Shown: positions 33,698 through 51,830, counted from the stretch's first letter. The stretch is 64,000 nt of DNA from an uncultured delta proteobacterium (GCA_963787125.1 CAWBBV010000007.1:288001-352000), one strand, 5' to 3'. A program made the numbers and translations. Notes: generated by a model not told the origin, from the letters alone.

Positions 33698-33727
33698 TTG
33701 ACTTATCCTAGAATATCGTTCTATAAA
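33698..33727 (+). promoter_or_regulatory. Candidate sigma70 promoter for the riboswitch leader
   Basis: TTGACT-18 bp-TATAAA about 25 nt before the aptamer. Confidence 0.5.
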
Positions 33728-33752
33728 AACAACACGTTAAAACAAACTAAAA

Positions 33753-33854
33753 TATATTGTCACCGAAACGGCAAAACACGGGTAACCGTGTGACGCAAAG
33801 CTACCTGTCCAATACCTGATTGGATAGAGGGGCAGTCGAAGGGCAGATGGATAT
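33753..33854 (+). ncRNA. c-di-GMP-I (GEMM) family riboswitch aptamer
   Basis: GGCAAA-ACACGG-GTAA-CCGTGT-GACGCAAAGCTA matches the GEMM-I P2 (GNRA loop) and junction consensus; second hairpin CTGTCCAAT/ATTGGATAG; terminator directly after. Confidence 0.8.
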
Positions 33855-33889
33855 AAGCCCACCATTCGTTGTGTGGGCTTTTTTATTTT
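33855..33889 (+). terminator. Leader terminator (riboswitch expression platform)
   Basis: AAGCCCAC...GTGGGCTT followed by a T-tract, ~35 nt before the ATG at 33923. Confidence 0.85.
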
Positions 33890-33922
33890 GTATTCAATTT
33901 TCTGTATTTTTGGGAGGAACCG

Positions 33923-36844
33923 ATGTTTCGCAGACACTCCAGAATAATCGCCGCGGTTGTTTTATCTTTCTTCACCTGGACGTCAGGCGGTGTCTTCAGC
34001 ATTGCCCATGCGGCGCAGGATGCCGTCAAAAAGTCTAATGCCCAGCCTCAGGCGAAGAAGGGCGAAGGGGCGGAGGAGCGTTTTGCCAGGCTGACAGAGG
34101 AGCTGAGTGCCGATCTCTTTGACCCGAAAACCGGTCATGTACACAAGAGGCAGCGGCTGACGGCGCGTAAGGTTGAGCTGGACTCCCTCGACACTGACAT
34201 TCGCCAGCAGTTTGCCGAAACGGAAAAGAAGCTAAAAGACGCCAAGCTGCCCGCTGAGATCCTGGCGCGGCATGCCAAATTCGTCAAACACTATGACGAC
34301 AACCTGGCTGAGTTGAAAGGGAACATGGCGCTGGTAGAGAGCGCCACCGATGCAGCGGAGACCGAAGCTGCAATCGATAAAACCCGCCAGCACCTGGAGC
34401 GGGTCAAAGCCCCCTCCCGCCACAAGAAACTCGATCCCAACAATCTTCCCCACCGGCAGCCGAAGGCGCTGAAGCGGGAGCCTCGGCTGAAGAAAGAAGA
34501 TTTCGACAAGGATCTCAAAAAAGACAAACACGCCTGGAAAAGCGCCAAGAGAATCATGGTCGCCTCGACCGGCTCCGTTGCCGGGCTGCTCCCTGCCGAT
34601 GATCTGGCCGAAACCGTTGAGGTGCAGCTAACTCCGGAGATAAAAGCCAAGGCGCTGGAGCTGGGGAACAGTCCGGTGAAGATCTACGAGTGGGTGCGGA
34701 ACAACGTCAAGTTCGTCCCCACCTGGGGCTCCATCCAGGGGGCGCAGATGACGCTTCTGACCAGGCAGGGAAACTCATTCGACACAAGTTCCCTCCTCAT
34801 CGCCCTCCTGCGGGCAGCCGGGATCAATGCCCGCTATGTTACCGGCACAGTTGAACTTCCCATTGACAATATCATGAACTGGGCCGGAGGTTTCACCGAC
34901 CCAATGGCCGCTCTCGATTTCATGTCCAGTGGCGGCATTCCCACCAAGGGACTTGTTAGCGGCGGCAAGATTGTTGCTGCCCGCTTTGAGCACGTCTCGG
35001 TTGAAGCCTTCATCGACTACATCCCCTCCAGAGGGGCGAAGCACAAGCAGGGACAAGGTGACACCTGGATACCTCTTGATCCGAGCTATAAGCAGTACAC
35101 CTTCACTCAAGGCATCGACATCAAGTCCGCCGTCCCCTTCAACGCTCAGGGGTTCCTCGACCAGATCAAGGCAACCGCCGCCATCAACGAAACCGCAGGC
35201 TACGTCACCGGTATCGACTCCCTCCTTACCCAGCAGACCATGCAGGACTACCAGGCACGGGTCCAGAGCTACATCCAGCAGAACCACGCCAACGCCACCG
35301 TCGGCGATGTCCTCGGCAAGAAAGAGATCGTCAAAAAAGAGTACCGCCATCTCCTCGGCACCCTGCCGTATCGCACCGCAGTCAAGGGAAGTACGTTTAC
35401 CACCATCCCCGACAGCCTGCGGCACAAGCTCTCCTTCAGAGTAGAGAATGAAGCAACCAACACCTTCGTTGACCCCGAAGCACCGGCACCGGTGGATAAC
35501 TCCCTCACCATAAACAAAAGCCTGGCGGAACTGGCAGGCAAGAAGATAACCCTCAGCTACTCACCGGCAACCGTACAGGACGAAGCGGTCATTAACTCCT
35601 ACCTCCCCCGGCCCCATGCAGACGGCACCCCCATACAGCCAAGCGAACTGCCAACCCAGCTCCCGGCGTACCTCATCAATGTCAAACCGGAACTCAGAAT
35701 TGACGGGCAGGTGGTAGCCACCGGAGCGCCGGTAGGCCTGGGCGGCATCAACATCTCCACCATGACCTTCTCCGACCCTGCCTACGGCTCAAGCCAGGTC
35801 ACCAACTACATTGACGCCGGGGTCTATCAGGCAATAGGGCTCAACTTGGGGAGGATCAGCGCTGAGCAGTTAACCAGTCTAAAAGCAAAACTGGAAGCTA
35901 CCAAAGCAAAGCTGCAGAACAACGACTTTGCCACCATGACCAAGGATGATCTGATGGGTGATCTCCTCTACACCACCGCCATGTTTTATCATTCCGGGCT
36001 TGACAAGATGAACAACATCATCGCTCGAACCCTGAATGTCAGTGCTATCACCCTTCCATCGGAAACCATTTTCGCCACCAAGCTCAATGTCATGATGTTT
36101 TTCGGAATACCGAGATATGTCCGGGCAGGCGGCTTGAACATGGATGCGGACTACCTCGTACAGGTGGTAAAATCTAAAGACGGCAATGTTGACACTGCCA
36201 GGCACTACATGCTCAGTAGCGGCATGACGTCATCGGCTCTGGAACATGGCGTGCCGGAACAGCTCTTTTCGACGACAGATACCCCGTTAGAGGGTGTAAG
36301 CACAATAAAAGCGCTCAAAATCGCCTCAGACCAAGGCATTCCAATTTATACAGTAAACCAGAGTAATATTGCCACCACACTGCCGCAACTGCAAATCAGT
36401 CAGCAGATAAAAGACGACATCACTAACGCAGTTAACGCAGGTAAAGTTGTCACCGTTTCTAAAACCAACATTAATTTCAACGGCTGGAATGGTTGCGGGT
36501 ACATTATTGCTAATCCGGATACCGGTGCCGGGGCGTACATGATTAGTGGTGGAACAAGCGGTGGAGATATTATTCTAATCGGTGCATTTCTAAGAAACGA
36601 TATAATTAACGCGCTGGTCAAGTATGCTCCAGAAAAAGAAGCTTTTACTCGGGCAACATCAAAACTCTTAAACGAAGGTGAACTGCTTAATGTTCTAATA
36701 GAAGTAACACAAAAAGAAGCAGCAAATGCTGCTGCACTTAGGGTATTACTTGGCTCACTTCTTGGTGCTACCGTAATTGTTTTGACTCCGTCAACATTAC
36801 AAGATCCGTATTTAGGTGCTGATGGTAATTGGTATTGGCCATAG
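33923..36844 (+). CDS. Secreted transglutaminase-fold protein, copy 1 (973 aa), variable 93-aa C-terminus
   Basis: Signal peptide ending AHA; IYEWVRNN...GNSFDTSSLLIALLRAAGINARYV...EHV...WIPLDPS; GGAGG RBS. Confidence 0.85.
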   Translation: MFRRHSRIIAAVVLSFFTWTSGGVFSIAHAAQDAVKKSNAQPQAKKGEGAEERFARLTEELSADLFDPKTGHVHKRQRLTARKVELDSLDTDIRQQFAETEKKLKDAKLPAEILARHAKFVKHYDDNLAELKGNMALVESATDAAETEAAIDKTRQHLERVKAPSRHKKLDPNNLPHRQPKALKREPRLKKEDFDKDLKKDKHAWKSAKRIMVASTGSVAGLLPADDLAETVEVQLTPEIKAKALELGNSPVKIYEWVRNNVKFVPTWGSIQGAQMTLLTRQGNSFDTSSLLIALLRAAGINARYVTGTVELPIDNIMNWAGGFTDPMAALDFMSSGGIPTKGLVSGGKIVAARFEHVSVEAFIDYIPSRGAKHKQGQGDTWIPLDPSYKQYTFTQGIDIKSAVPFNAQGFLDQIKATAAINETAGYVTGIDSLLTQQTMQDYQARVQSYIQQNHANATVGDVLGKKEIVKKEYRHLLGTLPYRTAVKGSTFTTIPDSLRHKLSFRVENEATNTFVDPEAPAPVDNSLTINKSLAELAGKKITLSYSPATVQDEAVINSYLPRPHADGTPIQPSELPTQLPAYLINVKPELRIDGQVVATGAPVGLGGINISTMTFSDPAYGSSQVTNYIDAGVYQAIGLNLGRISAEQLTSLKAKLEATKAKLQNNDFATMTKDDLMGDLLYTTAMFYHSGLDKMNNIIARTLNVSAITLPSETIFATKLNVMMFFGIPRYVRAGGLNMDADYLVQVVKSKDGNVDTARHYMLSSGMTSSALEHGVPEQLFSTTDTPLEGVSTIKALKIASDQGIPIYTVNQSNIATTLPQLQISQQIKDDITNAVNAGKVVTVSKTNINFNGWNGCGYIIANPDTGAGAYMISGGTSGGDIILIGAFLRNDIINALVKYAPEKEAFTRATSKLLNEGELLNVLIEVTQKEAANAAALRVLLGSLLGATVIVLTPSTLQDPYLGADGNWYWP

Positions 36845-36908
36845 TTGTAAAGAAGTACCAATTCCACTTAGTTACTACAAAAAATATTCAGGGACAAGGA
36901 GTCGTTAA

Positions 36909-37388
36909 ATGTTTGATATAACCAGATTGTTTGGCAAATATGCAAAACCTCACACTAGAACTAAGTTTGAAATTACTACCATTATATGTATGTCAGTATT
37001 TATGCGTAATTTTGAAGAAATTACAAACAAGCGTTCACTACAAGACATTGCAAAATTAATGCAACAGTTTTATGGGCTTATTGCAAGTGCTACTACTGAT
37101 TTTAATGCCGACATTGACAGGTTTTGCCACAACCAAGTGCTAATATATTTTAAGCATGATATTAATCACGCTGAAGATCATGCTATAAAATGCGGACATA
37201 ATATTATTAGTAACTTTCACAATTATGATGAGTCGTTAGATATCGGCGTCGGAATATGTAAAGGTGAAATTATTTATGGCATATTTGGATCTGAAACAAG
37301 AGCTACGGTAACTGGTTTTGGTCCTGTTGTTAACACTTCAATTGAACTATCTAAAAACAAAAGTGGAGTAAATAGCGTTACCCTATAA
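36909..37388 (+). CDS. AT-rich partner 1: degenerate class III adenylate/guanylate cyclase-like protein (putative immunity)
   Basis: AAGGAG RBS; DIDRF, IGVGICKGEIIYGIFGSETR, GPVVN align to the class III cyclase pattern but catalytic residues are replaced. Confidence 0.65.
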   Translation: MFDITRLFGKYAKPHTRTKFEITTIICMSVFMRNFEEITNKRSLQDIAKLMQQFYGLIASATTDFNADIDRFCHNQVLIYFKHDINHAEDHAIKCGHNIISNFHNYDESLDIGVGICKGEIIYGIFGSETRATVTGFGPVVNTSIELSKNKSGVNSVTL

Positions 37389-37478
37389 ACCGGGTCTGTA
37401 CTCTGGGGAAACGTGAAGACGTTGGTAGGTTGTCTCCTTTTTTGAAAAAGAACAAAAGCCGTTAAGTTGGAGGAACCG

Positions 37479-40400
37479 ATGTTTCGCAGACACTCAAGGA
37501 TAATCGCCGCAGTGGTACTGTCTTTCTTCACCTGGACATCAGGCGGCCTGTTCAGCGTCGCTCATGCAGCAACAGCTGCCGTGAAGAAGGCCAAGACCGA
37601 GGCTCCGGCAAAGAAGAGCGATGCGGCCGAGGAGCGGTTTGCGAAGCTGACTGAGGAACTGACAACCGAACTTCTCGACTCGAAAACGAGTCATGAGCAC
37701 AAGAAACAGCGGCTGACGTTCCGCAAGGGTGAGCTGGACACCCTTGACGCCGCCATCCGCAGCGAATTCGCTGCCACCGAGACGAAACTGAAAAACGCCA
37801 AGCTGCCGCCAGAGATCCTGACCAGACATGCCAAGTTCGTCAAACACTACGACGACAACCTTTCCGAGCTGAAGGGGAACATGGCTTTTGTTGAGAGCAC
37901 CCAGGATGCGGCTGAGGCAGAAGCAGCGCTGGAAAAGACCCGCCAGCATTTGGCAAAGGTCAAGGCACCGTCGCGGCACCAGAAACTCGATCCCAACAAC
38001 CTCCCCCATCGGCAGCCGAAGGCGATCAAGCGGGAACCGCGGCTGAAGAAGGAGGATTTCGATAAGGATCTCAAAAAAGACAATCACGCCTGGAAAAGCG
38101 CCAAGAGAATCATGGTCGCCTCGACTGGCTCCGTTGCCGGATTGCTTCCTTCAGATGACCTGGCCGAAACGATAGAAGTCCAGTTAACCCCGGAGATCAG
38201 GGCCAAAGCGCTGGAGCTGGGGAACAGTCCGGTGAAGATCTACGAGTGGGTGCGGAACAACATCGAATTTGTCCCCACCTGGGGCTCCATCCAGGGAGCC
38301 CAGATGACGCTCTTGACCAGGCAGGGGAACTCATTCGACACAAGTTCTCTACTGATAGCGCTGCTGCGGGCCGCAGGGATCAATGCCCGCTATGTTATTG
38401 GTACGGTTGAACTCCCAATTGATAAGATCATGAACTGGGCGGGCGGCTTCACCGACCCCCTGGCTGCCCTAGATTTCATGTCCAGCGGTGGCATACCCAC
38501 CAAGGGTCTGGTTGCCGGGGGCAAGATCGTAGCTGCTCGCTTTGAGCATGTCTCGATCGAAGCCTTCATCAACTACATCCCGTCCCGTGGAGCAAAGCAT
38601 ATCAATGGCAAGGGTGATACCTGGATCAAGCTTGATCCGAGCTTCAAGCAGTACAACTTCACCCAAGGCATCGACATCAAAACCGCCGTCCCCTTCGATG
38701 CACAGGCATTCCTCACCCAGCTGAAATCATCCGCCACCATCAACGAAACCGCTGGATACGTCACCGGCATCAACTCCCTCCTCACCCAACAGACCATGCA
38801 GGACTACCAGACGAGGGTGCAGAGCTACATCCAGCAGAACCATCCCAACGCTACCGTCGGCGATGTGATTGGCAAGAAAGAGATCATCAAAAAGGAATAC
38901 CGCCATCTTCTCGGCACCCTGCCGTACCGCACCGCAGTCAAGGGGGCAACTTTTACCACCATCCCCGACAGCTTGCGGCACAAGCTCTCCTTCAGGGTAG
39001 AGAACGAAGCCGCAAACACCTTCGTTGATCCTGATGCACCGGCAGCGGTGGACAACTCCCTGAGCATCACCAAAAGCCTGGCAGAACTGGCAGGCAAGAA
39101 GATAACCCTCAGCTACTCCCCGGCAACCCCTCAGGACGAAGTTATCATCAACGCCTATCTGCCAAGCCCGCATGCCGACGGCACTCCCATACAGCCAAGC
39201 GAACTCCCCAGCCAGCTACCGGCGTATCTGATCAACGTCAAACCGGAACTCAGGATTGACGGTCAGGTAGTGGCCACCGGAGCGCCGGTAGGCCTTGGCG
39301 GCACCAACATCTCCACCATGACCTTCAGCGACCCGGCTTACGGCTCAAGCCAGATAACCAACTACATTGACGCCGGGGTGTACCAGGCAATCGGGCTCAA
39401 CCTGGGGCGAATCAGCGCCGAGCAGTTAACCGGGCTCAAAGCAAAACTGGAAGCTACCAAAGCAAAACTGCAGAACAACGACTTCGCCGGCATGACCAAA
39501 GATGATCTGATCGGTGATCTCCTCTACACCACCGCCATGGCCTATCATGCCGAACTCGGCACCATGAACTACATTGCCGCAAAAACCATGAACGTCAACG
39601 CCATCACCGTACCGTCAGAAACCATCTTCGCCACCAAGCTCAAAGTAATGTGTCTTTGGGGAATACCGCGCTATATCAGTTCCGGCGGACTCAATATGGA
39701 TGCTGATTATCTGATGCAGGTAGTAAAGGCAAAAGACGGCAACAGCGAGACCGCCAAGCAGTATATGCTCTCCAGCGGCATGACTTCCTCGGCGCTGGAG
39801 CACAATGTGCCGGAGAAGCTCTTCTCCACGCCGGACAGCCCTGCCCAAGGGATCAGCACGGTCAAGGCGCTGAAGATTGCCAATGACCAGGGAATCCCGG
39901 TCTACACGGTCAATCAGGCGAACATTGCGACAGTTATGCCGCAATTGCAGGTGGATCAGCAAGTGAAGGAAGACATCCAGAACGCCGTGAATGCAGGGAA
40001 GATGGTTACTGTCTCCAAGACCAACATCAACTTCAATGGATGGAATGGGTGTGGGTATATCATTACTAATCCGGAAACCGGGGCTGGTGGGTATATGATC
40101 AGTGGGGGGTCGAATGGCGCAGTAATTCAAGCCTTGTGGCTGGCTGGTTACATTATCTTGCATATCCTTGCATTCGCAGGTGTTGCGGCATTGGCTACTT
40201 TAGGTGTTTTATCTGGTGGGTTCGGATCTGCTGTAATATTTCCTGCATTTAGTGCATTTTTAGCTGAAATGATCGCTGTAGTCAGTGCAGGGTATTTAGA
40301 ATTATGCTTATTTGTAGCTAGTGCTCCTATCATTAGGGCATTATATTCCACGGTATCGCTTTGGGCGGATATGAGCCCCCCGCCTTTGCCTTTTCCGACT

Positions 40401-40550
40401 AGTCTCGGAGATTATCAATTTTGGGTGTTCTTCTTTATGGTTCGTATTCTTCACTATTTTGAATTGAAGTGGCTATTGTCTAGAGTCATACTAGAATATA
40501 ATTGGCATATTGTTAGAAGCTATGACATTCAAAATCACATTAGATGTTAA
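37479..40550 (+). CDS. Secreted transglutaminase-fold protein, copy 2 (1023 aa), hydrophobic 143-aa C-terminus
   Basis: Paralog of 33923-36844 up to YMISGG; identical RBS/start GGAGGAACCGATGTTTCGCAGACACTC. Confidence 0.85.
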   Translation: MFRRHSRIIAAVVLSFFTWTSGGLFSVAHAATAAVKKAKTEAPAKKSDAAEERFAKLTEELTTELLDSKTSHEHKKQRLTFRKGELDTLDAAIRSEFAATETKLKNAKLPPEILTRHAKFVKHYDDNLSELKGNMAFVESTQDAAEAEAALEKTRQHLAKVKAPSRHQKLDPNNLPHRQPKAIKREPRLKKEDFDKDLKKDNHAWKSAKRIMVASTGSVAGLLPSDDLAETIEVQLTPEIRAKALELGNSPVKIYEWVRNNIEFVPTWGSIQGAQMTLLTRQGNSFDTSSLLIALLRAAGINARYVIGTVELPIDKIMNWAGGFTDPLAALDFMSSGGIPTKGLVAGGKIVAARFEHVSIEAFINYIPSRGAKHINGKGDTWIKLDPSFKQYNFTQGIDIKTAVPFDAQAFLTQLKSSATINETAGYVTGINSLLTQQTMQDYQTRVQSYIQQNHPNATVGDVIGKKEIIKKEYRHLLGTLPYRTAVKGATFTTIPDSLRHKLSFRVENEAANTFVDPDAPAAVDNSLSITKSLAELAGKKITLSYSPATPQDEVIINAYLPSPHADGTPIQPSELPSQLPAYLINVKPELRIDGQVVATGAPVGLGGTNISTMTFSDPAYGSSQITNYIDAGVYQAIGLNLGRISAEQLTGLKAKLEATKAKLQNNDFAGMTKDDLIGDLLYTTAMAYHAELGTMNYIAAKTMNVNAITVPSETIFATKLKVMCLWGIPRYISSGGLNMDADYLMQVVKAKDGNSETAKQYMLSSGMTSSALEHNVPEKLFSTPDSPAQGISTVKALKIANDQGIPVYTVNQANIATVMPQLQVDQQVKEDIQNAVNAGKMVTVSKTNINFNGWNGCGYIITNPETGAGGYMISGGSNGAVIQALWLAGYIILHILAFAGVAALATLGVLSGGFGSAVIFPAFSAFLAEMIAVVSAGYLELCLFVASAPIIRALYSTVSLWADMSPPPLPFPTSLGDYQFWVFFFMVRILHYFELKWLLSRVILEYNWHIVRSYDIQNHIRC

Positions 40551-40559
40551 GAGTAACAT

Positions 40560-41465
40560 ATGAAAACAAATCTCAAGTTAATTATTAACAAATACAATAA
40601 CTTCTTAATCGAAATTACAGGTTTTATTTCGGCAAGTCTAATTTTTTCATCTGGTATTGGCCGATATAGAGTATGTATTGCATATGCTGTATACAGTGTA
40701 ATTAAGGCAATTGGTACAATAAAATTTATTGGTAAAACCCCAGACATATTTTTATTGCCGGCTATCGCGATAGCAGTATATTTCGATTTAACAAAAGGTC
40801 CAGTACTCCCACTTTTTACCAATAACTATTTGTTGTTCGCGCTAGCAGTGTTGATCATAGTTGATTTGTTAACTAGGAAGCTAATGAAACGGATGATATC
40901 TACTATCAGCAATGGCGAATTATTTGTAGCGTGCCCTTCATGTAGTTTTGACAACAAAGAGTTAGTGGAAACCTGTAATAATTGCAATTATGACACAAGT
41001 AAAGGGTTTGGTAGATTTTATACCAATATATCATCACGTTTTATAGGCAATGAAATACCCTCAAAGCTATTTCGATTATTGAATATTGGTGAAAATGAAG
41101 AAGTTGTTTATCATAAAAAGCTTACTAGCAATCTGGTTTTTTTAAAAAACAATGAAAGAGAACTAAGAAAGCACCTGATAATAACAACAGAAAATGTGAT
41201 ATTCATTGATTATGAAGGTATTAGCTTTGGCATACCAAAAAGCTATCGTGCAAAAGATATTATTTCTTTAGATAAAATTGAATTTATAAAGTGTGAAATG
41301 AAAAACATTTTTATGGCAAATAGCCCGTTTCTCGAAATTGTAACCATTAACAAAGATTGTTATGGGATTACATTTTCATATTTTGGAAATTACAAGGAAG
41401 AAATGGGTGATATCGTCAAATTAATCACAAATTCGAATCCACAGGTTAAATCGACTCTCATCTGA
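40560..41465 (+). CDS. AT-rich partner 2: membrane protein with Zn ribbon and PH-like C-terminal domain (putative immunity)
   Basis: Starts 9 bp after the copy-2 stop; 3-4 hydrophobic segments, CPSC...CNNC, ENEEV...HLIITTENVIFI...ISLDKI. Confidence 0.65.
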   Translation: MKTNLKLIINKYNNFLIEITGFISASLIFSSGIGRYRVCIAYAVYSVIKAIGTIKFIGKTPDIFLLPAIAIAVYFDLTKGPVLPLFTNNYLLFALAVLIIVDLLTRKLMKRMISTISNGELFVACPSCSFDNKELVETCNNCNYDTSKGFGRFYTNISSRFIGNEIPSKLFRLLNIGENEEVVYHKKLTSNLVFLKNNERELRKHLIITTENVIFIDYEGISFGIPKSYRAKDIISLDKIEFIKCEMKNIFMANSPFLEIVTINKDCYGITFSYFGNYKEEMGDIVKLITNSNPQVKSTLI

Positions 41466-41553
41466 TTGATTGTTCAGAGATAGTAATCACCTGACAGCCG
41501 ACACGATAGCAGAAGTCAGACCATCATTTATTGAGCTCTTTTTATTGCAGCTA

Positions 41554-42695
41554 GTGTTTAATTGCATAAGTTAGCTATTGTATTTCTAAGCTGAGCGCCT
41601 CTGACTTCTCGTTTGCGCCAAACAAAAGGAGAAGCGGTTTCGTTGTAGCTGGCAATAAATGCTTCGATTGAATTCGTCAACTGTTCCGTGCTTGAGAAAC
41701 TGGCTCCAGATAAGGTTTTACGGCTAAGTATCCCAAACCATATTTCTACCTGATTGAGCCAACTGGCCGAGGTCGGCGTAAAGTGGAAGTGGACATTGGG
41801 ATGTAAGGCCAGCCAATCTTCATTTTTCTTGTGTGTACAGTAGTTGTCGAGAATTACATGAATATCTTCACCATCTGGAACCGTTGACACTATATCATCG
41901 AGAAACGCCTGAAAGTCCGGTCGTTTTTTAGTTACAGTTGTTTTCGACTGGATAGTTCCGGCGGCAACATCTAGTGCTGCAAATAGATTGATGACGCCAT
42001 GCCGCTTATAGGTGCTCTTCAGGCCGCGAACAATTTTACCGCTGCTTGTCTGCACATAACCGGTTGACCGCTCCAAGGCCTGTATAGATGGTTTCTCGTC
42101 AATACAGAGTACCAATGCTTTCTGTGGCGGTGCCAGGTATAAGCCGATTATGTCGGCTGACTTTACCGAGAATTCAGGATCAGTGCTGACACACCACGAA
42201 CGGTGTCGCCGCAACTGAATGCCGTTTTTACGCAGTATGCGCCAGACAACATCATCTGAGACCGCCAATGCTTTAGCCAGTGCACCGCCATCCCATGCCG
42301 CCAGACCTGCTGGCGGAGACTCTTCCAGCTTGGCGAGTATGCGCTGCCTTAACTCTAATGCTGGATATTTAGCTGGCTTGCCGGAACGGGGTTTGTCGTA
42401 TAAACCCGAAAGACCATGAGCCGCAAAGCGTTTACGCCAGATGCCCACAGTCAGCGCTTGCGTATCAAGCTCGGCTGCGACCTCATCATTGCGCTTACCG
42501 GACAGACAGTAAAGTATGATTTTAACTCGCTCCACAATGCGTATTTCTTCGGTCCGGCTTCTGCTTATGCGCTCTAGCTCTTGCACGACCTTGGGCTCAC
42601 AAGTTAGCGCTATTGCAACCCTGGGCATATGACACCTCCATCTCTAGTGGGATGGAGACAGTATAATACTTATATTAACTATTGCAACTAAACAC
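41554..42695 (-). mobile_element. IS630-family insertion sequence
   Basis: IR GTGTTTA(A/G)TTGCA..AGTTA at both ends; TA duplicated (41552-41553, 42696-42697) in a CTAG target. Confidence 0.93.
41558..42628 (-). CDS. IS630 transposase
   Basis: HTH, DKPRSGKP, CIDEKPSIQAL, ILDNYCTHK, SWLNQVEIWF. Confidence 0.96.
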   Translation of the reverse strand: MPRVAIALTCEPKVVQELERISRSRTEEIRIVERVKIILYCLSGKRNDEVAAELDTQALTVGIWRKRFAAHGLSGLYDKPRSGKPAKYPALELRQRILAKLEESPPAGLAAWDGGALAKALAVSDDVVWRILRKNGIQLRRHRSWCVSTDPEFSVKSADIIGLYLAPPQKALVLCIDEKPSIQALERSTGYVQTSSGKIVRGLKSTYKRHGVINLFAALDVAAGTIQSKTTVTKKRPDFQAFLDDIVSTVPDGEDIHVILDNYCTHKKNEDWLALHPNVHFHFTPTSASWLNQVEIWFGILSRKTLSGASFSSTEQLTNSIEAFIASYNETASPFVWRKREVRGAQLRNTIANLCN

Positions 42696-42706
42696 TAGGA
42701 GGAATT

Positions 42707-45700
42707 ATGCATAGCCGACAGCTTCTCATTCTAATAGTGATGTTTTGTTCATTGATATTCGCCATGGCGGCCCACGCCCAGCTCCCCCAGATATCCAGCG
42801 GACTCAGTTACCTTACCGCAGCCCAAAACCCTGACGGCACCTGGGAGACCAGTACTTCACCGGTCGAGACCACCGTTGTCACGGTCTCGGCCTTGGAAAC
42901 GCTCAAACTGCTGAACCAGACCGCCGGAACTGCCTATACCAGCGGCGCTGCCTGGCTACAAGGGCAAACGCCGCTTTCCGTTGATACCATTGCTGATCAG
43001 ATCCGCGTTCTTAGTCTTACCGGCAATAGCATCAATGCTCTTCTTCCTCTTATCGATCCAGCCAAAGGAGCCTGGGGCGGAGATGAAGGGTTTTTAGTCA
43101 ACATCCTCGACAGCTCCCTCGCCCTCCAGGCCCTCCACGCCGCCAACTACCCCGACCTCACCGTCATCAATAACGCCCTGGCCTACCTCACAGGAAGCCA
43201 GAACAGCGACGGTAGCTGGAGTTTCTCAACCGGCAGCGACAGCAACATTTACCTGACCGCCATCGTCTCCGCCACCCTCCAGCAGTTCCCCCAGATGACC
43301 AGCATCGCCGCCGCGGTAAACAAGGCCACGACGTATCTACTCGCCCATCAGAACAGCGACGGCGGGTTTGGCCCTTCGATAGGCTCAGGGCAATCACTTT
43401 CTACAGTCTACGAAACTGCCCTGGCCTACACCGCCCTGGCAGCTGTCGCCACCAACGAAGCGGTATTAACGAACGCTGCCAACTACCTCACTTCTACCCA
43501 AGCAACCAACGGCTCCTGGAACAACGACCCTTACTCTACGGCCCTGGCGCTGAAAGCCCTTTACCTCTCGGAAAACCGCCCATCACCACCGCCGCCGCCA
43601 CCGGCAGGGGGCAAGTTCACCGGCACGGTGGTTGACTCCATCACTCTGCAAAAGGTGGCAGGTGTAACCGTTGCCCTGGTGAGCAACAACCTGATCAATA
43701 CGGTCAGCGACAGTGGTGGGAACTTCACCCTGGCTGATGTCCCTCCCGGCGCTCAGAACGTCAACTTTTCCCTTGCCAGTTTTGCTTCGACAACCTCCGC
43801 AGCTACCGCCATTGCCGACGTTACCACGAATCTCGGCAATATTCCGATGACCTCCGCCTACACCACCGGCGCTATCAGCGGCAAGATCCTTGACCAGACA
43901 GGCAAGCCGCTGGACAATGTCGCCATCGCAGTCAGCGGCTCCTGGAGCGGCAGCGCCGTTACCGGGGCAGACGGCGCCTTTGCCTTTGCTTTTGTCACCC
44001 CCGGCGACGTCACCATCACCGCTGCTAAAACCGGTTACCAGAGCTTCAGCGGAGCGGGACGGGTCTACGCCCGCACCACCCTCTCTATCTCCCCCCGGCT
44101 GAACTCTGCCCAGTCCCAGTTAACCACCGGCAGCATTATCGGCAGAGTTATCAGCGACTTCTGGGGCTACCCGATAGACCATCTGTCGGAAGATCAAGGG
44201 GTGAGGGTCACGATTTCCGGGGGCGCATTCGTCGAGCCAGACCCGAATAACGGCGGCAAATTCGCCATCAATGGTCTTGCTCCCAACACATATCAGGTGA
44301 CAATCGGCATGAGCGGCTTTGTCAGCCAGACCTTCCGCCTGATCGTCGTCCCCGGCGTTACCTCCGATTTGGGGACGATCCGCCTGGTCGAGTCAGTAGC
44401 CACCATGACCCTTGTGGGTAAAGTCACGGATACGGCTACCGGACTGCCGATCCCCAGCGCGGAGATTGTCATCCCTGCCACCGGCCAGACCGCCCGCAGT
44501 GATTTTGCCGGGACGTATGCCATTGCTGATATCAAAACGTTCCAATTAGACCTTAAGGTTTCGGCTGTCGGCTATGTGGCGAAAACCGTTGACCTCTACC
44601 AGGTCGGCATCCATGGCTCAATATGGACCCAGACCGTGGATGTATCCCTGACAGCACAGACTACTATGGGTGATATTTCGGGCAGGGTCATTGCTGGCGA
44701 AACAGGCCAACCGTTGGCCGTAGCTACCATTACCCTGGCGGCTGCGGCAGACACAACAGTGACTACCGGTGCGGACGGCATCTTTACCATGAAAACTCTG
44801 CAGATGGGGGTGCAGCAGCTGCTGATAGCCAGCGACGGCTATGCCCCCCGGACAGTAGAGATGGTCATCTTCCCCGGCATGGTCACTACAAGCGGCGACA
44901 TTGCCCTGGCGGCGGTACCCGTCAATGGCGTTATCCGGGGGGTGGTCCGCAACGCTGAGACCGGCGCTACCCTGGCCGGAGTCCAGGTAACGGTCGACGG
45001 CAGCACGAGTTTGCAGACCGTGACGACAACCGACGGCAGCTATCTCTTCGACCCTGTTGCTCCCGGCCCCGTAACCGTCAACATGACGAAGGTCGGCTAT
45101 TACCCGGCCCGGATCAGCGCCACCCTGGCCGAAGGGGGAATGCTGGTCTTCAGTCCAGCGCTGGCCGCCGCCATGCCGGTGACAGTCTCCACGGCCCTGC
45201 AGACCGATAAGCCGGTCTATGCCAAGGGTGATACGGTCGGCTTCACCACAACCCTGATCAACCGCGAGTCCCGTGACCTGACGGCCACATTACGATCGCG
45301 CCGGACGGTTCAGTTGCCCACAAGGCTGCAGTAGTCACTACCCTTGCCTCCGACGGAGTGCGCTCACTGGAAAGCTCATACCCGCTCCCAGCCAGCCTGC
45401 AAGGGGGGATTTACACGGTCTCCGCGGAACTGTTCGACGTGGTCGGGGCCTGGATCGGCGCCGCCACGGGGAGTTTCGGCGTGGCGGTCAGCCGGATTTC
45501 CGTGACCCCCACTCTGCCGCAGATGTTCTCGACCGGCAATAACTCCCTCCTTTTCAATCTCAACAATGTTGGCGATCTGCCGGCAGCCTCCGGCAGATTC
45601 ACCCTTGCCCTCAAGGATGAGTCCGGGCTTGTAGTGGCCGCTATGGAGCAGCCCTTTACGCTTGCCCCGGGTACGGGAAAAACCGTGACCGTCAATCTTG

Positions 45701-48700
45701 CCCTGCCGACACTACCCTTCGGCGCCTACAGCCTGGTCTACAGTCAGAGCGATGAAACCCGCGACGGTGTGCCGGTAACTATTCCGCTCGTTAACGCTGT
45801 TACCATAACCGCTCTCTTCGACAACAATTCCCACCGGGTACGGGACACGGCAACCCTGAACGTAACGGTGGCAAATACCGGCCGGTTCGCCCTGGAGAGC
45901 GGCCTGCCCATCGCCGTCACTCTCCCCGCTGCCGGCTACACCGAGACCAGAAGTCTGGTTACTGTCCCGGTTAGCGGCAATACGCAGGTATTCAGCTTTA
46001 CAATCCCCGCGTCCCTCGGTTCCGGCGAGCACATTGCCAGCATCACCGCCGCCCTGCCGGGAGGTCCGGCCATCACCGCCAGCGCCAAACTGGTGATTTT
46101 CCCGGCGGCTCTCACCCTTGAGCCGTTGCCGACAAACGCCGCGGCAGGCGGCGCCGTCAGCGTACATATTGTCAATAGCGGCGGCATTGATACACAGGCC
46201 GCTTGCCGCTTGAGTCTCTACGATATGACGTCAAAGCTGATAGCGGAAAAGGTTGCCATGGAAACGGCCCTGGCCGGCGCCTCACTGCCCATAGCGCTGT
46301 CGATTCCGGCCGGCGCTGTTGACGGCAGCTACAGCCTGGTGGTGAATTACAGGAACAGCTCCACCGGGGCAGAAGAAACAGTATCCGGCCAGTTGCTCAT
46401 TACAGGTGTCAAAGGAAGTCTGCTGGTTACCACAGGAAAATCGAATTATCTGCCGACGGAGCCGATTGCCGGGCAGAGTAGCATCACAACCTCCGGCTTT
46501 CCTTTGCAGAACGGCAATCTCCACCTGCAGGTAACCAACGCCAGCGGGAGTCGGCAGCAAAGAATCTGGACAAGCCAGTTCGACTTTCAGCAGGGGGTGA
46601 GAAGCGGGCTCGATGCCTACAGCGTCCCTGGAGCAGTGTCGCTACTGTCGCTATCTGATAATTTCGATGATGGCATCCTTAATACGGACAGGTGGACGAA
46701 AATAACCGGTAACGCCGGCATGCCCCCGGCAGAGGAATCAGGATTCCTGAAAACAGAACTGCCGGGCGCTGCTACTGCCGGCAACGTGTCAGCTTTGCGC
46801 GCTGCCTATCTCTTTTCCGGAGATTTTGATATTTCTGTCGACTACTCCATCACGAAATGGAGTTCTCAATCGCATATGGGCATCATTACGTACATTGATG
46901 GCAACGAACTCCGCTGGGGTGTGTTTGCAAATAAGTCGTTTGAAACGATGTGGGCATATTACGATTGGCGTGCAGGGTTTACTGCGCCAGATAACGGCAA
47001 GTTGCGATTGAAGCGCAGCGGAAATATGTACTACTGCTATTTTTGGAATGAATCTGCCTGGACTTTGTTCACCGTATACAGGCTGCCTGCGCCGGCGGTA
47101 ACAGTTCAGTTTTGGGCAAACTCTGACACTCAAGGAAATCCCATGGAAATCCATTGGGACAACTTCACTTCAGATACGAATTTCATCTCAGCCGGAACAA
47201 TGAATTTGAAATACGATAGCGGACAATCGGATTATTGGGACAAGTTTGCGTTCGATGGCGATATCCCTACCGGCACCGGTATCAAGTTCCGGACACGCAC
47301 TGCCGAAACTGAAGCCGGTCTGGCCAGTGGTATGTGGAGCGATTACATCACCACTAGCGGTTCGCCGATCACCAACCCGAAAGGGCGCTGGATCGAAGTC
47401 GAGACTACCATGTCCACAACGGATACAACAAAAACGCCGGTTTTGCGTGATATTAGCGTAACCCAGGGGCATAACCCGGGCGAAATCTTCTGGCAGACCG
47501 ATATCCCGGTCAATCTCGATGCCGGTGCGACCACAGCGCCTGCCAGCAGCATCGACACGCTCGCTCAGCCTGGAAAATACTACCTGCAAGGCACTCTGAC
47601 AGCAGATACCGGCCAGACAACCGCCACGGCCGAGTATCCTTTTTATGTCGTTCAGGGGAATATGCTTCTAACGCTCAGCCCCGACAAGAAACTGTACAAA
47701 CCGGGCGAGACAGTTACCATAAACGGTACGATATCAAACATGGCGACAATCGAGGCGGCCAATCTTGTCTTTTCGGTAAAGGCCAAAGCCGGGACTGGTG
47801 CTGAACAAGCACTGATTGCCGACACCTTCAGCATTCCTGTCGGCAGCAGCCGTACGTTCAAAACAACTACAACCGCCGGAACTGATGGGGTTGTCGCCCT
47901 GATGGCAACGATTGCCCAGAATGGCACAACCTTGGCCGCGGTTGCCGATCAGTACGAAATCTCCAGCCCGAAAGTGGCTGCAACCCTGAGCGGGCCTGAC
48001 AACGCCGGTACTGAGCCGATCACCTTGACGCTCACCCTCGCCAACAGCGGCAAGACCGATGCCTTGATTACCGTCACCAAATCGTTCAACTCCCCGCCAG
48101 AGACGCTAACCATCTCTGCCGGGCAGACAAGGTTACTCCAATACCCCCAACAACTCACCGCCGATTCGAACTATGCCTTCACCCTGTCCGGCGATCTGGC
48201 GCTGCAACTGACGAAGACGGTTGTTTATCTCGCCCCCAAGCAGGCAGCCAAGGTGAGCGTAAAAGCAGTTACTGACAAAATCTCCTATAACGCCATCGAG
48301 AAAGTTGCCATTACCACCACAATAAACTGCCTTAACGCCGGAACAACAGGTGACACTCTTAAGGCAACAGTGATGATAGTCAACAGCGGTGGAGAAGAGC
48401 TCTTCACCGACCAATTCATACTGTCAGCTCCTGATACAGGGAGAATCTACACTGACAGCAGATACTGGAACAGTGCCGCCTATCCGCCGGGCGTCTATGT
48501 CGCCAGAGTGACGGTGGAAAGTGGCGGGGCGGTACTGGCTACCAGCGAAGCGACGTTTACAGTTCTCTCTTCATCCGTGAGCGGAGCAGGAGTTGCAGGG
48601 GCTGTCTCTCCCGCTATGAACGCTGTTTACCTCGGCATTGACGAATCTCTTGCCATTACTGTGAAGAGCAGCGGCAATGAGGATCTGGCTGCGGCTCTCC

Positions 48701-50283
48701 TAGCTGTAACAGTGATCAATCCCGATACTCAGGCAATCATGCAGTCCTACAGCAAGATGATTACCCTTCCCCGCCAAGGGACCTTTACCGACACCGTTAT
48801 TGTGCCGACAGCAGCCTTTGCGGCGCGGGATTATCTGGCCATCCTGCAGATAACACTCCCCGGCATGGCTCAGGCCAAGACCATTGCCGGTACTCCTTTT
48901 AGCGTGAAGATTGCGCCGCCGCCCACGCTGCTTATCTCCACCCTGTCAGACGGCGCCGTGACCAATAACCAGACATTGAACATTACCGGTTCCGCGACAG
49001 GGGTAGTCGCCATAAGGTCGCTCACGATCAACACAACCGACGTGCCGCTCAATAGTGACGGCAGTTTCAGTCATGCGCTGCTGCTGCAAACGGGAGACTA
49101 TGTCGTGTCAACCATAGTCACTGACATCCTGGGGCACACTGCCACCGACAGCCGCACCATCACCCTCGACCAGCTGGCTCCAACCCTGACCATAGATTCC
49201 CCGGCGGACAACAGCACAACTGCCGTTTCTCCCATTGAAGTCAAGGGGAGAGTGGACGAGACCTCCACGGTAACTGTCACGGTAAAGGAGAGCGGCCAAA
49301 CTCTCATCATGAACGGCAAGGACTTTTCGGCCACGGTGTTGCCATTGCCAAGATGGAATACCATCGAAATAACCGCAACAGACTTGGCAGGCAATACTAG
49401 CAGCCAGAAGCGGAGCGTGCTGTTCGACGACCAGAAGCCGTCTCTGGCAATAACCGCACCGGATCAGGATATCCGCACCAATAAAAGCAGCCTGACGCTC
49501 AGCGGCAAAGCTTCCGATCCTTACACCGCCGTTGGCGTTACCGTTGCCATGGACGGCAGTGTGCTGGCTCCGGCGGTGATAGACGGTATTTTCTCCCAGA
49601 TTGTCAACTTTACAGACGAAAAACTCTACCCGATAACCGTTACCGCCAGCAATGAGGTGGGAACGCAGACCACTGTGCAGAGGAATGTCATCTTTGACAA
49701 AACCCCGCCGAACCTGACCATTGACCCGGTTGTTACGCCGACGAACGGCTCAGCCCAGACTATAAGCGGCACCAGGGAAAACGGGATAGCAGTAACCGTT
49801 AGCTGCGCTACCGCCACAGTCGGCGCAGTGGAGTATCCGGCCGGCACTACCTGGCGTGCCGCCATCAGCGGCCTTGCGCAGGGGGAGAACCGTTTGCTGG
49901 CTGAGGCATACGACCTGGCAGGCAACAAGACAACAGCCGTCGCCACGATTCTTTATGTGCCGAAAACGCCGGATGTGTTCATCAGCGCTTCCCGGCAGAC
50001 TCTCTGGCCGCCGAACAAAAAGCTGGTGCCGGTAGTCATTAGCGGAAATGTGGCGACCTTTGGCTCTGACATAAAAGATGTGACCATCTCCGTTGCCGAT
50101 GAATACGGGAAATACAATCTGCAGGGGCTCAAATTCGGCGATACGGTGCTGCTGGAGGCGTGGCGGGAAGGGAGCGACATGGACGGCAGGGTCTACACCA
50201 TTACTGCGGTGGTGACGGATCAGGCTGGAAACAGGGCAACGAAGTCAGCTACGGTTATTGTGCCGCACGATATGGGGAAATAG
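42707..50283 (+). pseudogene. Giant secreted protein (~2500 aa): QW-repeat alpha/alpha barrel, carboxypeptidase-regulatory-like repeats, macroglobulin-like/Ig domains, lectin-like insert; frameshift near 45290
   Basis: ORFs 42707-45334 and 45358-50283 are in different frames. The downstream frame is open from 45277 and continues the same Ig domain. No RBS at 45358. Could be a sequence error or two genes. Confidence 0.7.
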
Positions 50284-50305
50284 AGTAACTCCGGAAGATC
50301 AGGGC

Positions 50306-50338
50306 AAAGGGCCGGGCAGAATATCCGGCCCTTTTTTT
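50306..50338 (+). terminator. Intrinsic terminator ending the accessory block
   Basis: AAAGGGCCGG / CCGGCCCT7. Confidence 0.88.
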
Positions 50339-50447: not shown

Positions 50448-51830
50448 GTGTCTGATAAAAAACGTATTCTGCTCATCGATAATGAAGAAGGCCTCTGTCG
50501 GATGATGGAGGCGGTTCTGCTTGATGCCGGCTACAAGGTTAAGTCCTATACCCGCTCATTTCAGGCTGTCGAGGATTTTGCTCCCGGCGAATGGGATCTG
50601 GTCATAACAGACATCAAAATGCCGGGAATGGATGGTCTTGAGGTGTTGCAGCGGATCAAGGCACTGCAGCCCCAGATTCCGGTCATAATGATAACTGCTT
50701 TTGCGACTGTGGAGATGTCGATTCAGGCTCTGCGCAAAGGTGCTTATGATATGCTGACCAAACCTTTTGAACCTGAAGAGCTTCTTTACCGGGTGAAAAA
50801 TGCGCTCACCCAGACTGAGCTGATTGAGGAGAATAAAGAACTTAAGGCGGAGCTTGCCGGCAAATTCCGTTTCGAGAACATAATCGGCGCTTCAACGGGC
50901 CTTAAAGCTGTGCTGGAGCGTGTTGAAAAGATTGCCATTCGTGACACTTCAATCCTGATAACCGGTGAGTCCGGTACCGGCAAGGAGTTGATCGCACAGG
51001 CTATCCACTATAATTCACCGCGAAAGGGGAAGCGTTTTGTCGCCATAAATTGTGGCGCACTGCCGGAATCTATCCTTGAAGGTGAGCTTTTCGGTTATAA
51101 AAAAGGGGCTTTTACCGGTGCAAAAGAGAACCGCGCCGGACTTCTGGAAACAGCTGACGGTGGGACACTCTTTCTTGACGAAGTGGGTAATCTGCCGATG
51201 AATGTCCAGAAAACCCTGCTCCGGTTTTTGCAGGAACAGGAGTTCAATCGCTTGGGAGATACCACTCCGACAAAGGTTGATGTCCGGATTCTCTCGGCAA
51301 CTAACTCGGACCTGAAGCAGGCAATCAAGAACGGCGCCTTTCGCGAAGACCTATACTACCGGCTTAATGTTGTCAATATCCATCTGCCACCCTTAAGAGA
51401 GCGCAGAGGAGATATCCCTCTTTTAGCGGCTCACTTCATTGTCCTCCAGAACAGCAAGTTCGGAACCGGGGTGAAAGGGCTTGATTCCGAAGCGATGGCT
51501 GCAGTAGCCCAGTATGACTGGCCGGGTAACATCCGCGAAATGAAAAACGTGATTGAGGCTTCCCTTGCGATGGAGAACGAAGAGCATCTGACCTTTGCAA
51601 CTTTGGCCCAGTTTATCGAAATGCCGGAAGTTATTTTCTCATTACCGGTAGATGAGCAGGTAGATGGGGACTACAGCTCTGCCATGGCACGTTTTGAGGC
51701 GGAGTATCTCTCCGGGCTGCTTACCCGCTACGGCTGGAATGTCGATGCCGCTGCCAGAGACGCCGGCATGAATATGGCGACGATGTATCGCAAAATAAAA
51801 AAATATTCGCTCAAAAAGGATTCAGCTTAA
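50448..51830 (+). CDS. Sigma54-dependent response regulator (NtrC/AtoC family)
   Basis: Receiver (TDIKMP), GESGTGKE, GAFTGA, FREDLYYRL, C-terminal HTH. Confidence 0.96.
   Translation: MSDKKRILLIDNEEGLCRMMEAVLLDAGYKVKSYTRSFQAVEDFAPGEWDLVITDIKMPGMDGLEVLQRIKALQPQIPVIMITAFATVEMSIQALRKGAYDMLTKPFEPEELLYRVKNALTQTELIEENKELKAELAGKFRFENIIGASTGLKAVLERVEKIAIRDTSILITGESGTGKELIAQAIHYNSPRKGKRFVAINCGALPESILEGELFGYKKGAFTGAKENRAGLLETADGGTLFLDEVGNLPMNVQKTLLRFLQEQEFNRLGDTTPTKVDVRILSATNSDLKQAIKNGAFREDLYYRLNVVNIHLPPLRERRGDIPLLAAHFIVLQNSKFGTGVKGLDSEAMAAVAQYDWPGNIREMKNVIEASLAMENEEHLTFATLAQFIEMPEVIFSLPVDEQVDGDYSSAMARFEAEYLSGLLTRYGWNVDAAARDAGMNMATMYRKIKKYSLKKDSA

Follow-up and report, generated by a model that had tools for sequence, protein, structure and literature searches.

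The window analysed here is a 64,000-nucleotide (nt) stretch of DNA from an uncultured delta proteobacterium (GCA_963787125.1 CAWBBV010000007.1:288001-352000), and all coordinates refer to this whole stretch unless a contig or locus is named. Its positions 33698-50338 hold a block in which two near-identical secreted proteins, here called carriers, end in unrelated tails (tips), are each followed by a small gene low in guanine plus cytosine (GC), and precede a gene for a giant secreted protein. We read this block, with a probability of about 0.75, as a Sec-dependent polymorphic toxin/immunity locus of the inactive-transglutaminase class, in which short, RHS-less carriers are coupled to a giant surface protein. 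The block comprises the following features, with protein lengths in amino acids (aa):

33698-33727, plus strand: promoter-like TTGACT-18 nt-TATAAA, seen by eye and the weak part of the block
33760-33841, plus strand: riboswitch aptamer of the cyclic di-guanosine monophosphate-I class (c-di-GMP-I, GEMM-I; RF01051)
33855-33889, plus strand: terminator of the expression platform, a AAGCCCAC / GTGGGCTT hairpin with a T-run, found by sequence reading
33923-36552, plus strand: carrier A, with Transglut_core at 9.6e-15 (open reading frame (ORF) of core A plus tip, 33923-36844)
36553-36844, plus strand: tip A, about 96 aa, helical, GC 0.39, unrelated to tip B
36909-37388, plus strand: partner a, 159 aa, GC 0.33, candidate immunity protein, matching PDB entry 2w01 at E 1.2e-6
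37479-40108, plus strand: carrier B, 84% identical to carrier A (ORF of core B plus tip, 37479-40550)
40109-40550, plus strand: tip B, about 146 aa, hydrophobic, Gly/Ala-rich, GC 0.41, candidate membrane-inserting toxin
40560-41465, plus strand: partner b, 301 aa, membrane protein with a zinc-ribbon-like CxxC...CxxC, GC 0.31, candidate immunity protein
41551-42698, minus strand: IS630-family insertion sequence (IS), DDE_3 transposase at 41558-42628 (Pfam), outside the system proper
42707-50283, plus strand: giant secreted partner, about 2520 aa, domains by Pfam, with a frameshift near 45290-45295
50309-50338, plus strand: intrinsic terminator GGGCCGG-9 nt loop-CCGGCCC followed by T7, found by sequence reading

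The sequence-only reading of this DNA had described a co-oriented block running from promoter to terminator. The riboswitch, the genes and the terminator stand, the co-orientation is broken by the minus-strand IS630-family element, and the promoter was recognised by eye only. The two near-identical cores of about 880 aa with unrelated C-termini, and the different small AT-rich gene behind each of them, proved to be as that reading described. Over 883 aa, cores A and B share 84% identity; past YMISGG they are unrelated. At the DNA level their homology (81-87%) begins about 7-10 nt before the ATG, extends to 36552 and 40108, respectively, and then ends abruptly. The cores have a GC of 0.55-0.56, against 0.39-0.41 for the tails and 0.33 and 0.31 for the small genes. 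The boundary between carrier and tail is marked by the motif GCGY...YMISGG. Five copies of the core are present in the genome, two in the window and three on contig C16, and they bear five different tails. NCBIfam holds no family for the cores or the partners. The Pfam family PF28006, listed by the database for two homologs, was set aside since it was not reproduced at E<=0.1 on the one that was scanned (P0030).

Of 7998 candidates scored in a database search, 1034 proteins passed E<=1e-5. In the best 120 homologs the match spans about 91% of the query, which corresponds to the core without its tail, and a simple pattern search finds GCGY...YMISGG in 84 of these 120. Past the motif, the tails measure 15-237 aa and mostly contain 2-5 hydrophobic segments, with a few that are soluble and Cys-rich. 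Within the order, the core occurs in 37 of 201 genomes and in 19 of 38 genera, often in multiple copies. The scan of reference genomes yielded 180 relatives, which beyond Geobacter-like bacteria belong to Nitrospirota, Thermodesulfovibrionales, Smithella, Deferribacteres, Thiotrichales, Nitrospinota and Entotheonella.

To describe the tails, we used 79 non-redundant short-form cores taken from 94 fetched loci and our own two loci, after removal of duplicates and incomplete ORFs and with tails limited to 40-400 aa. These cores carry tails of 46 clusters followed by next genes of 51 clusters, which bears out the diversity of tips that the sequence-only reading had proposed to check. Even pairs of cores that are at least 75% identical have a tail in common in only 16 of 80 cases. 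The compositional step seen in the window recurs across the set, with GC averaging 0.487 for cores, 0.400 for tails and 0.346 for next genes; the tail lies below its core in 72 of 79. In a Pfam analysis of 76 tails, NLPC_P60 reached or exceeded the cut-off in seven, Phospholip_A2_3 fell just under it in three, DUF6310 was matched in one, two weak matches to Tox-ART-HYD1 were obtained, and 57 tails matched no family. Recognisable toxin domains, which had also been put forward as a check, are thus found on the tips of relatives and not on the two tips of the window. Behind five of the NlpC/P60 tails lie beta-propeller proteins with N-terminal hydrophobic leaders.

The relation between each tail and the gene that follows it was examined in 73 tail-partner pairs, giving 2628 comparisons. 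Tail and partner were alike together in 23 comparisons, a number reached by none of 2000 label permutations, in a test that overstates the signal because related genomes are not independent. In seven of these 23 shared pairs the cores are less than 60% identical. A first, small test with 16 pairs contained no shared pairs; it was too small and confounded by IS insertions, and is superseded by the test with 73 pairs. The proposed co-variation appears as a strong association that is not a strict pairing, as weighed below. In one locus the ORF after the tail (L059:10380-11579) encodes 400 aa with the CTD7 domain of ABC-three-component defence systems; this is probably a defence gene inserted there rather than an immunity gene.

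The two partners of the window differ from each other, and neither has a Pfam family. Partner b contains two hydrophobic segments. Among 239 genomes of the order only 2 encode it, in both cases immediately behind a core; the ESM Atlas offers for it a lead only (0.79) to Zn-ribbon/bPH clusters. Tips resembling tip B by eye are found on other cores (P0004, P0054), and the ESM Atlas gave no usable match for tip B. Partner a, through its match to 2w01, appears as a degenerate miniature of the class III adenylate/guanylate-cyclase-like fold in which, by eye, both metal-binding Asp residues are lost, an unusual fold for a candidate immunity protein.

The carrier consists of a signal peptide with an AHA cleavage motif (by eye), a helical bundle, an inactive transglutaminase domain, a beta-rich C-terminal half and the motif GCGY...YMISGG. 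Pfam detects Transglut_core in both cores, with the domain at aa 237-388, and the bundle of about 120 aa between signal peptide and transglutaminase domain is taken from an AlphaFold2 model. This model, built with 139 sequences, has a predicted local distance difference test (pLDDT) of 86.3 and a predicted template modelling score (pTM) of 0.85 for the body, with a pLDDT below 50 in the tail. The modelled transglutaminase domain resembles 3isr (Z 12.7, root-mean-square deviation (rmsd) 3.8, 149 aligned residues) and the pseudomurein endoisopeptidases (Z 9.5-9.8), and more weakly LapG (4fgo; Z 7.8, rmsd 3.6, 124 aligned); a PDB search with the family profile returned only 3isr, at E 5e-4. In the alignment of 139 carriers the nucleophile column holds Ala in 98, Asp in 30, Ser in nine, Val in one, Asn in one and Cys in none, and both window carriers have Ser. 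The rest of the triad is kept, with His in 132 of 139 and Asp in all 139. A Cys two residues before the nucleophile position, at column 284, is present in 40 of the 139 sequences, mostly together with Asp at the nucleophile column. Foldseek matches to the whole carrier are confined to the transglutaminase domain. When the C-terminal half of about 400 aa was folded alone (pLDDT 91.1), no clear solved relative emerged, the best VIA comparison reaching Z 5.5 and the best Foldseek hit E 0.03; for this modelled half, such a lack is no proof of a new fold.

The giant begins with a signal peptide and an alpha/alpha toroid (aa 24-290) of the prenyltransferase/squalene-cyclase-like type, which is joined by a Pro-rich linker to CarboxypepD_reg, MG2 and Ig-like repeats; Pfam identifies six CarboxypepD_reg, MG2, four Glucodextran_B and Big_13. 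In the assembly it is split into two ORFs (42707-45334 and 45358-50283). Its signal peptide and multidomain make-up agree with the secreted protein of about 2500 aa described from the sequence, and a single intact ORF does not. A tblastn search with the intact paralog on contig C16, a protein of 4447 aa ending in DUF7305, places the frame switch at about 45295, and we therefore treat the two ORFs as one gene with a frameshift, either real or an assembly error. Among the sequencing runs searched, the share of sampled words reached 0.16 at most, and RNA runs were absent from the listing. The matches to MG2 and TED_complement in the giant are only partial. An alpha-2-macroglobulin was considered and rejected, given that Cys is absent from the mature toroid and the thioester motif CxEQ from the giant.

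Core and giant tend to occur together, in line with the co-occurrence that had been suggested for checking. A homolog of the giant lies within 9 kb downstream in 34 of the 45 loci that leave at least 5 kb of room, and the 201 genomes of the order divide into 29 with core and giant (of 37 with the core), eight with the core only, three with the giant only and 161 with neither. Distant cores, about 33% identical and encoded in ORFs of about 2000 aa, lie near giants of about 5500 aa with which only the toroid is common. The proposed co-fold of core and giant passed its controls: carrier residues 185-885 with the toroid reached a score of 0.75, against 0.00 for the best of three controls. The mark applied is passed by 58 of 80 solved complexes and by 2 of 110 mismatched pairs, counts that calibrate our model only roughly, as it was made with our own alignments. 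At least 59% of the contacts agree between runs, with a partner pLDDT of at least 86. The predicted interface joins carrier loops 367-383 and 473-486 (GTLPY) to toroid loops at about 124-135 and 173-183, and involves nearly invariant residues in both proteins. These predictions support the docking of the carrier on the toroid of the giant and do not show it.

The riboswitch was correctly assigned to the cyclic-dinucleotide class in the sequence-only reading: the aptamer scores 57 bits against RF01051, whose gathering score is 35. The variant model RF03168 gives 61.3, under its gathering score of 65.9. The platform hairpin lies 34 nt ahead of the start codon of core A, and in the minimum free energy fold of the leader it forms apart from the aptamer. 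The ligand-contacting nucleotides are G20, A47 and C92 in the numbering of Vc2, which agrees with a passage of a review (PMC7288161). On this numbering the window aptamer keeps the G at the G20 place and the A, and has U at the C92 place of the ligand-pairing C. The same passage reports that the G20A mutant binds cyclic GMP-AMP (cGAMP) and the G20A/C92U mutant binds cyclic di-adenosine monophosphate (c-di-AMP) (PMC7288161). With the G kept and U at the C92 place, the ligand may be c-di-GMP or another cyclic dinucleotide. The window aptamer is like the c-di-GMP-I (GEMM-I) riboswitches in scoring above the Rfam gathering threshold, differs from their consensus in having U for the ligand-pairing C, and differs from the 3'3'-cGAMP-sensing GEMM-I subclass of Geobacter in keeping the G that is changed there.

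Related aptamers occur elsewhere in the family. Among 20 other fetched regions, three have an Rfam aptamer ahead of the core, one of them belonging to an Rhs form. A model (R1) built from four sequences, namely the window and these three regions, and run on 77 sources gave seven further matches in six loci; four of them lie 79-126 nt upstream of a core (L075, L086, L065, L085), in Nitrospirae and other uncultured lineages. Of 11 aptamers linked to the family, 8 share the U in place of the ligand-pairing C, and the G changed in cGAMP sensors is kept. Most family-linked aptamers read GUC against gCC in the c-di-GMP-I consensus (window 33830-33841, L061, L064, L065, L075, L084, L085, L086); they score near the Rfam orphan variant c-di-GMP-I-UAU, yet keep the 5' G. 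From their sequences, these GUC-type aptamers may be a natural specificity variant. The gene list for GEMM in Weinberg et al. 2007 includes, in the part relevant here, a 'transglutaminase-like cysteine protease' (PMC1950547).

The promoter and terminator scan added little, its counts being not above those of shuffled sequences. It totalled 16 promoters against 14.1 +/- 4.5 in shuffles, did not list the promoter-like TTGACT-18-TATAAA, and missed the terminator at 50309-50338 because its loop is 9 nt; both hairpins were found by sequence reading.

In three relatives, of 2744, 2756 and 3481 aa, the same core makes up the N-terminus and is joined to DUF6531, 11-23 RHS repeats and a variable end. 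Two of them also contain PKD and PASTA, with a small low-GC gene next to them downstream; behind the third lies an ORF of 1140 aa. The long RHS-fused relatives end in a DPxG-type motif. Inactive transglutaminase domains placed behind a signal peptide and before RHS repeats are described in passages of Zhang, de Souza, Anantharaman, Iyer and Aravind (2012, Biol Direct 7:18; PMC3482391), where such proteins are listed, from computational prediction only, under the toxins that depend on Sec and the type II secretion system (T2SS), and where the inactive domains are suggested to anchor the toxin at the surface by peptide binding. Our RHS-fused relatives match this class, so the kind of carrier is known from comparative genomics, and the description of the system as undescribed, made from the sequence, has to be withdrawn to that extent (PMC3482391). 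The window carriers are like members of this class in their signal peptide, their transglutaminase fold with a lost catalytic residue, their variable C-terminus and their proposed part in keeping the toxin at the surface. They differ from the proteins in those passages in lacking RHS repeats, with the tail directly after GCGY...YMISGG, and have in addition the half of about 400 aa that has no clear solved relative. The short form, the giant toroid/Ig partner and the riboswitch go unmentioned in the passages of that paper that deal with these proteins (PMC3482391), and our literature searches outside supplements found no experimental paper on the carrier family. What is new here is the RHS-less short form, its association with a conserved giant and the docking interface predicted between them, the riboswitch that recurs in the family and the second copy beside Tn7-like genes.

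Other known systems share parts of this design. With the Rhs/YD-repeat toxins the window has in common a constant N-terminus, a variable end, a low-GC gene downstream and several modules per genome; its cores differ in that a Pfam scan of both detects no RHS_repeat, DUF6531 or RHS core, so they have no encapsulating cage and no known self-cleavage site. The sequence-only reading had seen no YD, FHA, PAAR, VgrG or LXG elements in the carriers, which is true of the window; the lack of YD repeats does not extend to the relatives with RHS-fused cores. A Pfam scan of the window proteins detected none of the RHS, PAAR, VgrG, LXG and two-partner secretion (TPS) families. In contact-dependent inhibition (CDI), CdiA tails switch after a VENN motif with the immunity gene next, and pore-forming tails are known. 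The window resembles CDI and the MafB-type Sec-dependent toxins in the switch of tail after a short fixed motif (YMISGG) and in the candidate immunity gene that follows. It differs from CDI, since no TPS secretion domain, FHA repeats or CdiB transporter gene was found in the ORFs of the block or its flanks, and the role of the filament would fall to the separate giant. LapG-LapD-LapA is similar in its transglutaminase-fold periplasmic protein, its giant surface protein and its c-di-GMP-class control; the window differs in the missing catalytic Cys, in an RNA instead of a protein sensor, and in its polymorphic tails.

A mechanism consistent with these data would begin at the RNA level, where the cyclic-dinucleotide riboswitch with its own terminator would decide on transcription into the operon; aptamer and hairpin are present, and a ligand and an ON or OFF direction are presumed. 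The signal peptide would export the carrier, which is predicted to combine a bundle of helices with a transglutaminase-fold domain lacking a conserved nucleophile and with a beta-rich half. As the co-fold and the co-occurrence suggest, the loops 367-383 and GTLPY 473-486 of the transglutaminase domain may dock on the toroid of the giant, whose long stalk of Ig-like repeats would then position the carriers on the cell surface or further out. The tail past YMISGG would be the toxic part, directed at the envelope of neighbouring cells, as a membrane-inserting helical tail in the window and as putative peptidoglycan amidase or phospholipase tails in relatives. The low-GC gene behind each tail would protect the producer, as its position, the co-variation and its membrane or periplasmic targeting suggest. 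New cassettes of tail and protection may be swapped in by recombination at the DNA encoding the constant motif, a step proposed because of the sharp homology break and the drop in GC. Toxicity, immunity, surface display, outer-membrane passage and the ligand are thus what we infer within this scheme.

Several findings weigh against a toxin/immunity locus, besides the dependence among genomes and the rough calibration already stated. The pairing of tail and partner is not strict, with 36 of the 2628 comparisons alike in the tail only and eight in the partner only, and the tail ahead of the one relative of partner b cannot be aligned with tip B. Pfam finds no family above threshold on the tips of the window, with only a sub-threshold DUF6854 on tip A and nothing on tip B. 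Nor is tip A hydrophobic, and neither a leader nor a membrane segment is seen in partner a. In a close relative (L041) the giant directly follows the core, with no ORF of at least 70 aa between them, and the eight genomes with the core only show no giant with the query used. No outer-membrane export route is evident among the neighbours (histidine kinase, sigma-54 regulator, peptidase). Most loci of the family are without a riboswitch, and neither Rfam nor model R1 detects one at the second locus of the genome (contig C16). Finally, the hydrophobic tails could be plain membrane anchors.

This last point leads to an explanation in which the carriers are periplasmic or surface structural proteins, the tails inner-membrane anchors, the small genes unrelated membrane accessories and the diversity a result of weak constraint. 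Most tails being hydrophobic with 2-5 predicted segments, 57 of 76 being without a family, many partners being small membrane proteins and the giant resembling S-layer or adhesin proteins would all suit it. We nevertheless consider it unlikely, since anchors are not expected to include NlpC/P60, phospholipase-like and Cys-rich soluble tails, to give way to RHS cages in relatives, to begin where homology breaks off sharply and GC drops by 0.09-0.14, or to co-vary with the next gene. An equally unlikely alternative is that the targets are the producer itself or its kin, through signal-gated envelope remodelling, autolysis for the biofilm matrix or kin recognition, with the partners limiting self-damage. 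A riboswitch for a biofilm-linked second messenger, tail activities in relatives that are all directed at the envelope and the lack of dedicated injection machinery nearby fit such a role. Against it stand several different modules in one genome, the association of the locus with mobile elements, the patchy spread over genomes and genera, and the Rhs-fused relatives of the carrier, which are the usual marks of inter-strain conflict, as in Rhs and CDI systems. A transglutaminase-fold protease that trims a giant adhesin in response to c-di-GMP, in the manner of LapG and LapA, would account for the c-di-GMP-class control, the adhesin-like giant as a neighbour, the weak fold match to 4fgo and the predicted contact between transglutaminase domain and giant; with Cys absent from the nucleophile column of all 139 carriers, a carrier about four times the size of LapG, and swappable tails left unexplained, we regard it as highly improbable. 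The carrier was accordingly rejected as a LapG-type protease of the bacterial transglutaminase-like cysteine proteinase (BTLCP) group, its catalytic Cys being absent from that column.

On the toxin/immunity reading, a more far-reaching proposal can be made tentatively, which we hold to be possible and well short of probable: carrier and giant may form a new contact-dependent delivery device of Gram-negative bacteria, outside type V, VI and VII secretion, with a toroid socket, plug-in carriers bearing GTLPY, a variant riboswitch and dissemination as transposon cargo across phyla (Desulfuromonadota, Nitrospirota and others). Sec-only polymorphic toxins are the least understood class, in which the crossing of the outer membrane and the reaching of the target are open questions, and a conserved giant with a specific predicted docking interface turns the question of delivery into a testable one. 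If the reading is true, cyclic-dinucleotide signalling would be tied directly to interbacterial antagonism at the level of RNA. The carrier family, which is large and whose hosts include organisms of sediments and anaerobic consortia (Geobacter relatives, Nitrospirota, Smithella), would also provide about 46 tail families yet to be characterised, among them many small membrane-active domains.

The block is flanked by genes for a dCache histidine kinase (31619-33583), a sigma-54 response regulator (50448-51830) and an M24 peptidase. In a genome of the same genus (G067), where the core was not found, the orthologs of kinase and regulator are only 52 nt apart. As they are adjacent in that core-less genome, the whole block is an insertion between these two genes, and its 16.9 kb have split a two-component operon.

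Mobile elements have also entered the block itself. The IS630-family element of 1148 bp ends 9 nt before the ATG of the giant and is 100% identical to at least five other full-length copies in the genome and to one cut by a contig end; copies that numerous and identical indicate very recent transposition activity, and the element is a recent insertion and not part of the system. With this element ahead of the giant gene and the frameshift inside it, the window copy may be partly disabled. The second locus of the genome (contig C16:17699-55955; L132, L133) holds three modules and the intact giant of 4447 aa. There, one core is interrupted by an IS3-family element and another is parted from its small gene by an IS carrying DDE_Tnp_1_4. 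This locus adjoins glmS-TnsA-TnsB-TnsC-TnsD, with a group II intron reverse transcriptase between TnsC and TnsD, and is in the position of Tn7-like cargo. A further fragment of the core, 94 aa long and 72% identical, lies beside a group II intron (RF02001, RF01998) on contig C4:125823-126104 (L007).

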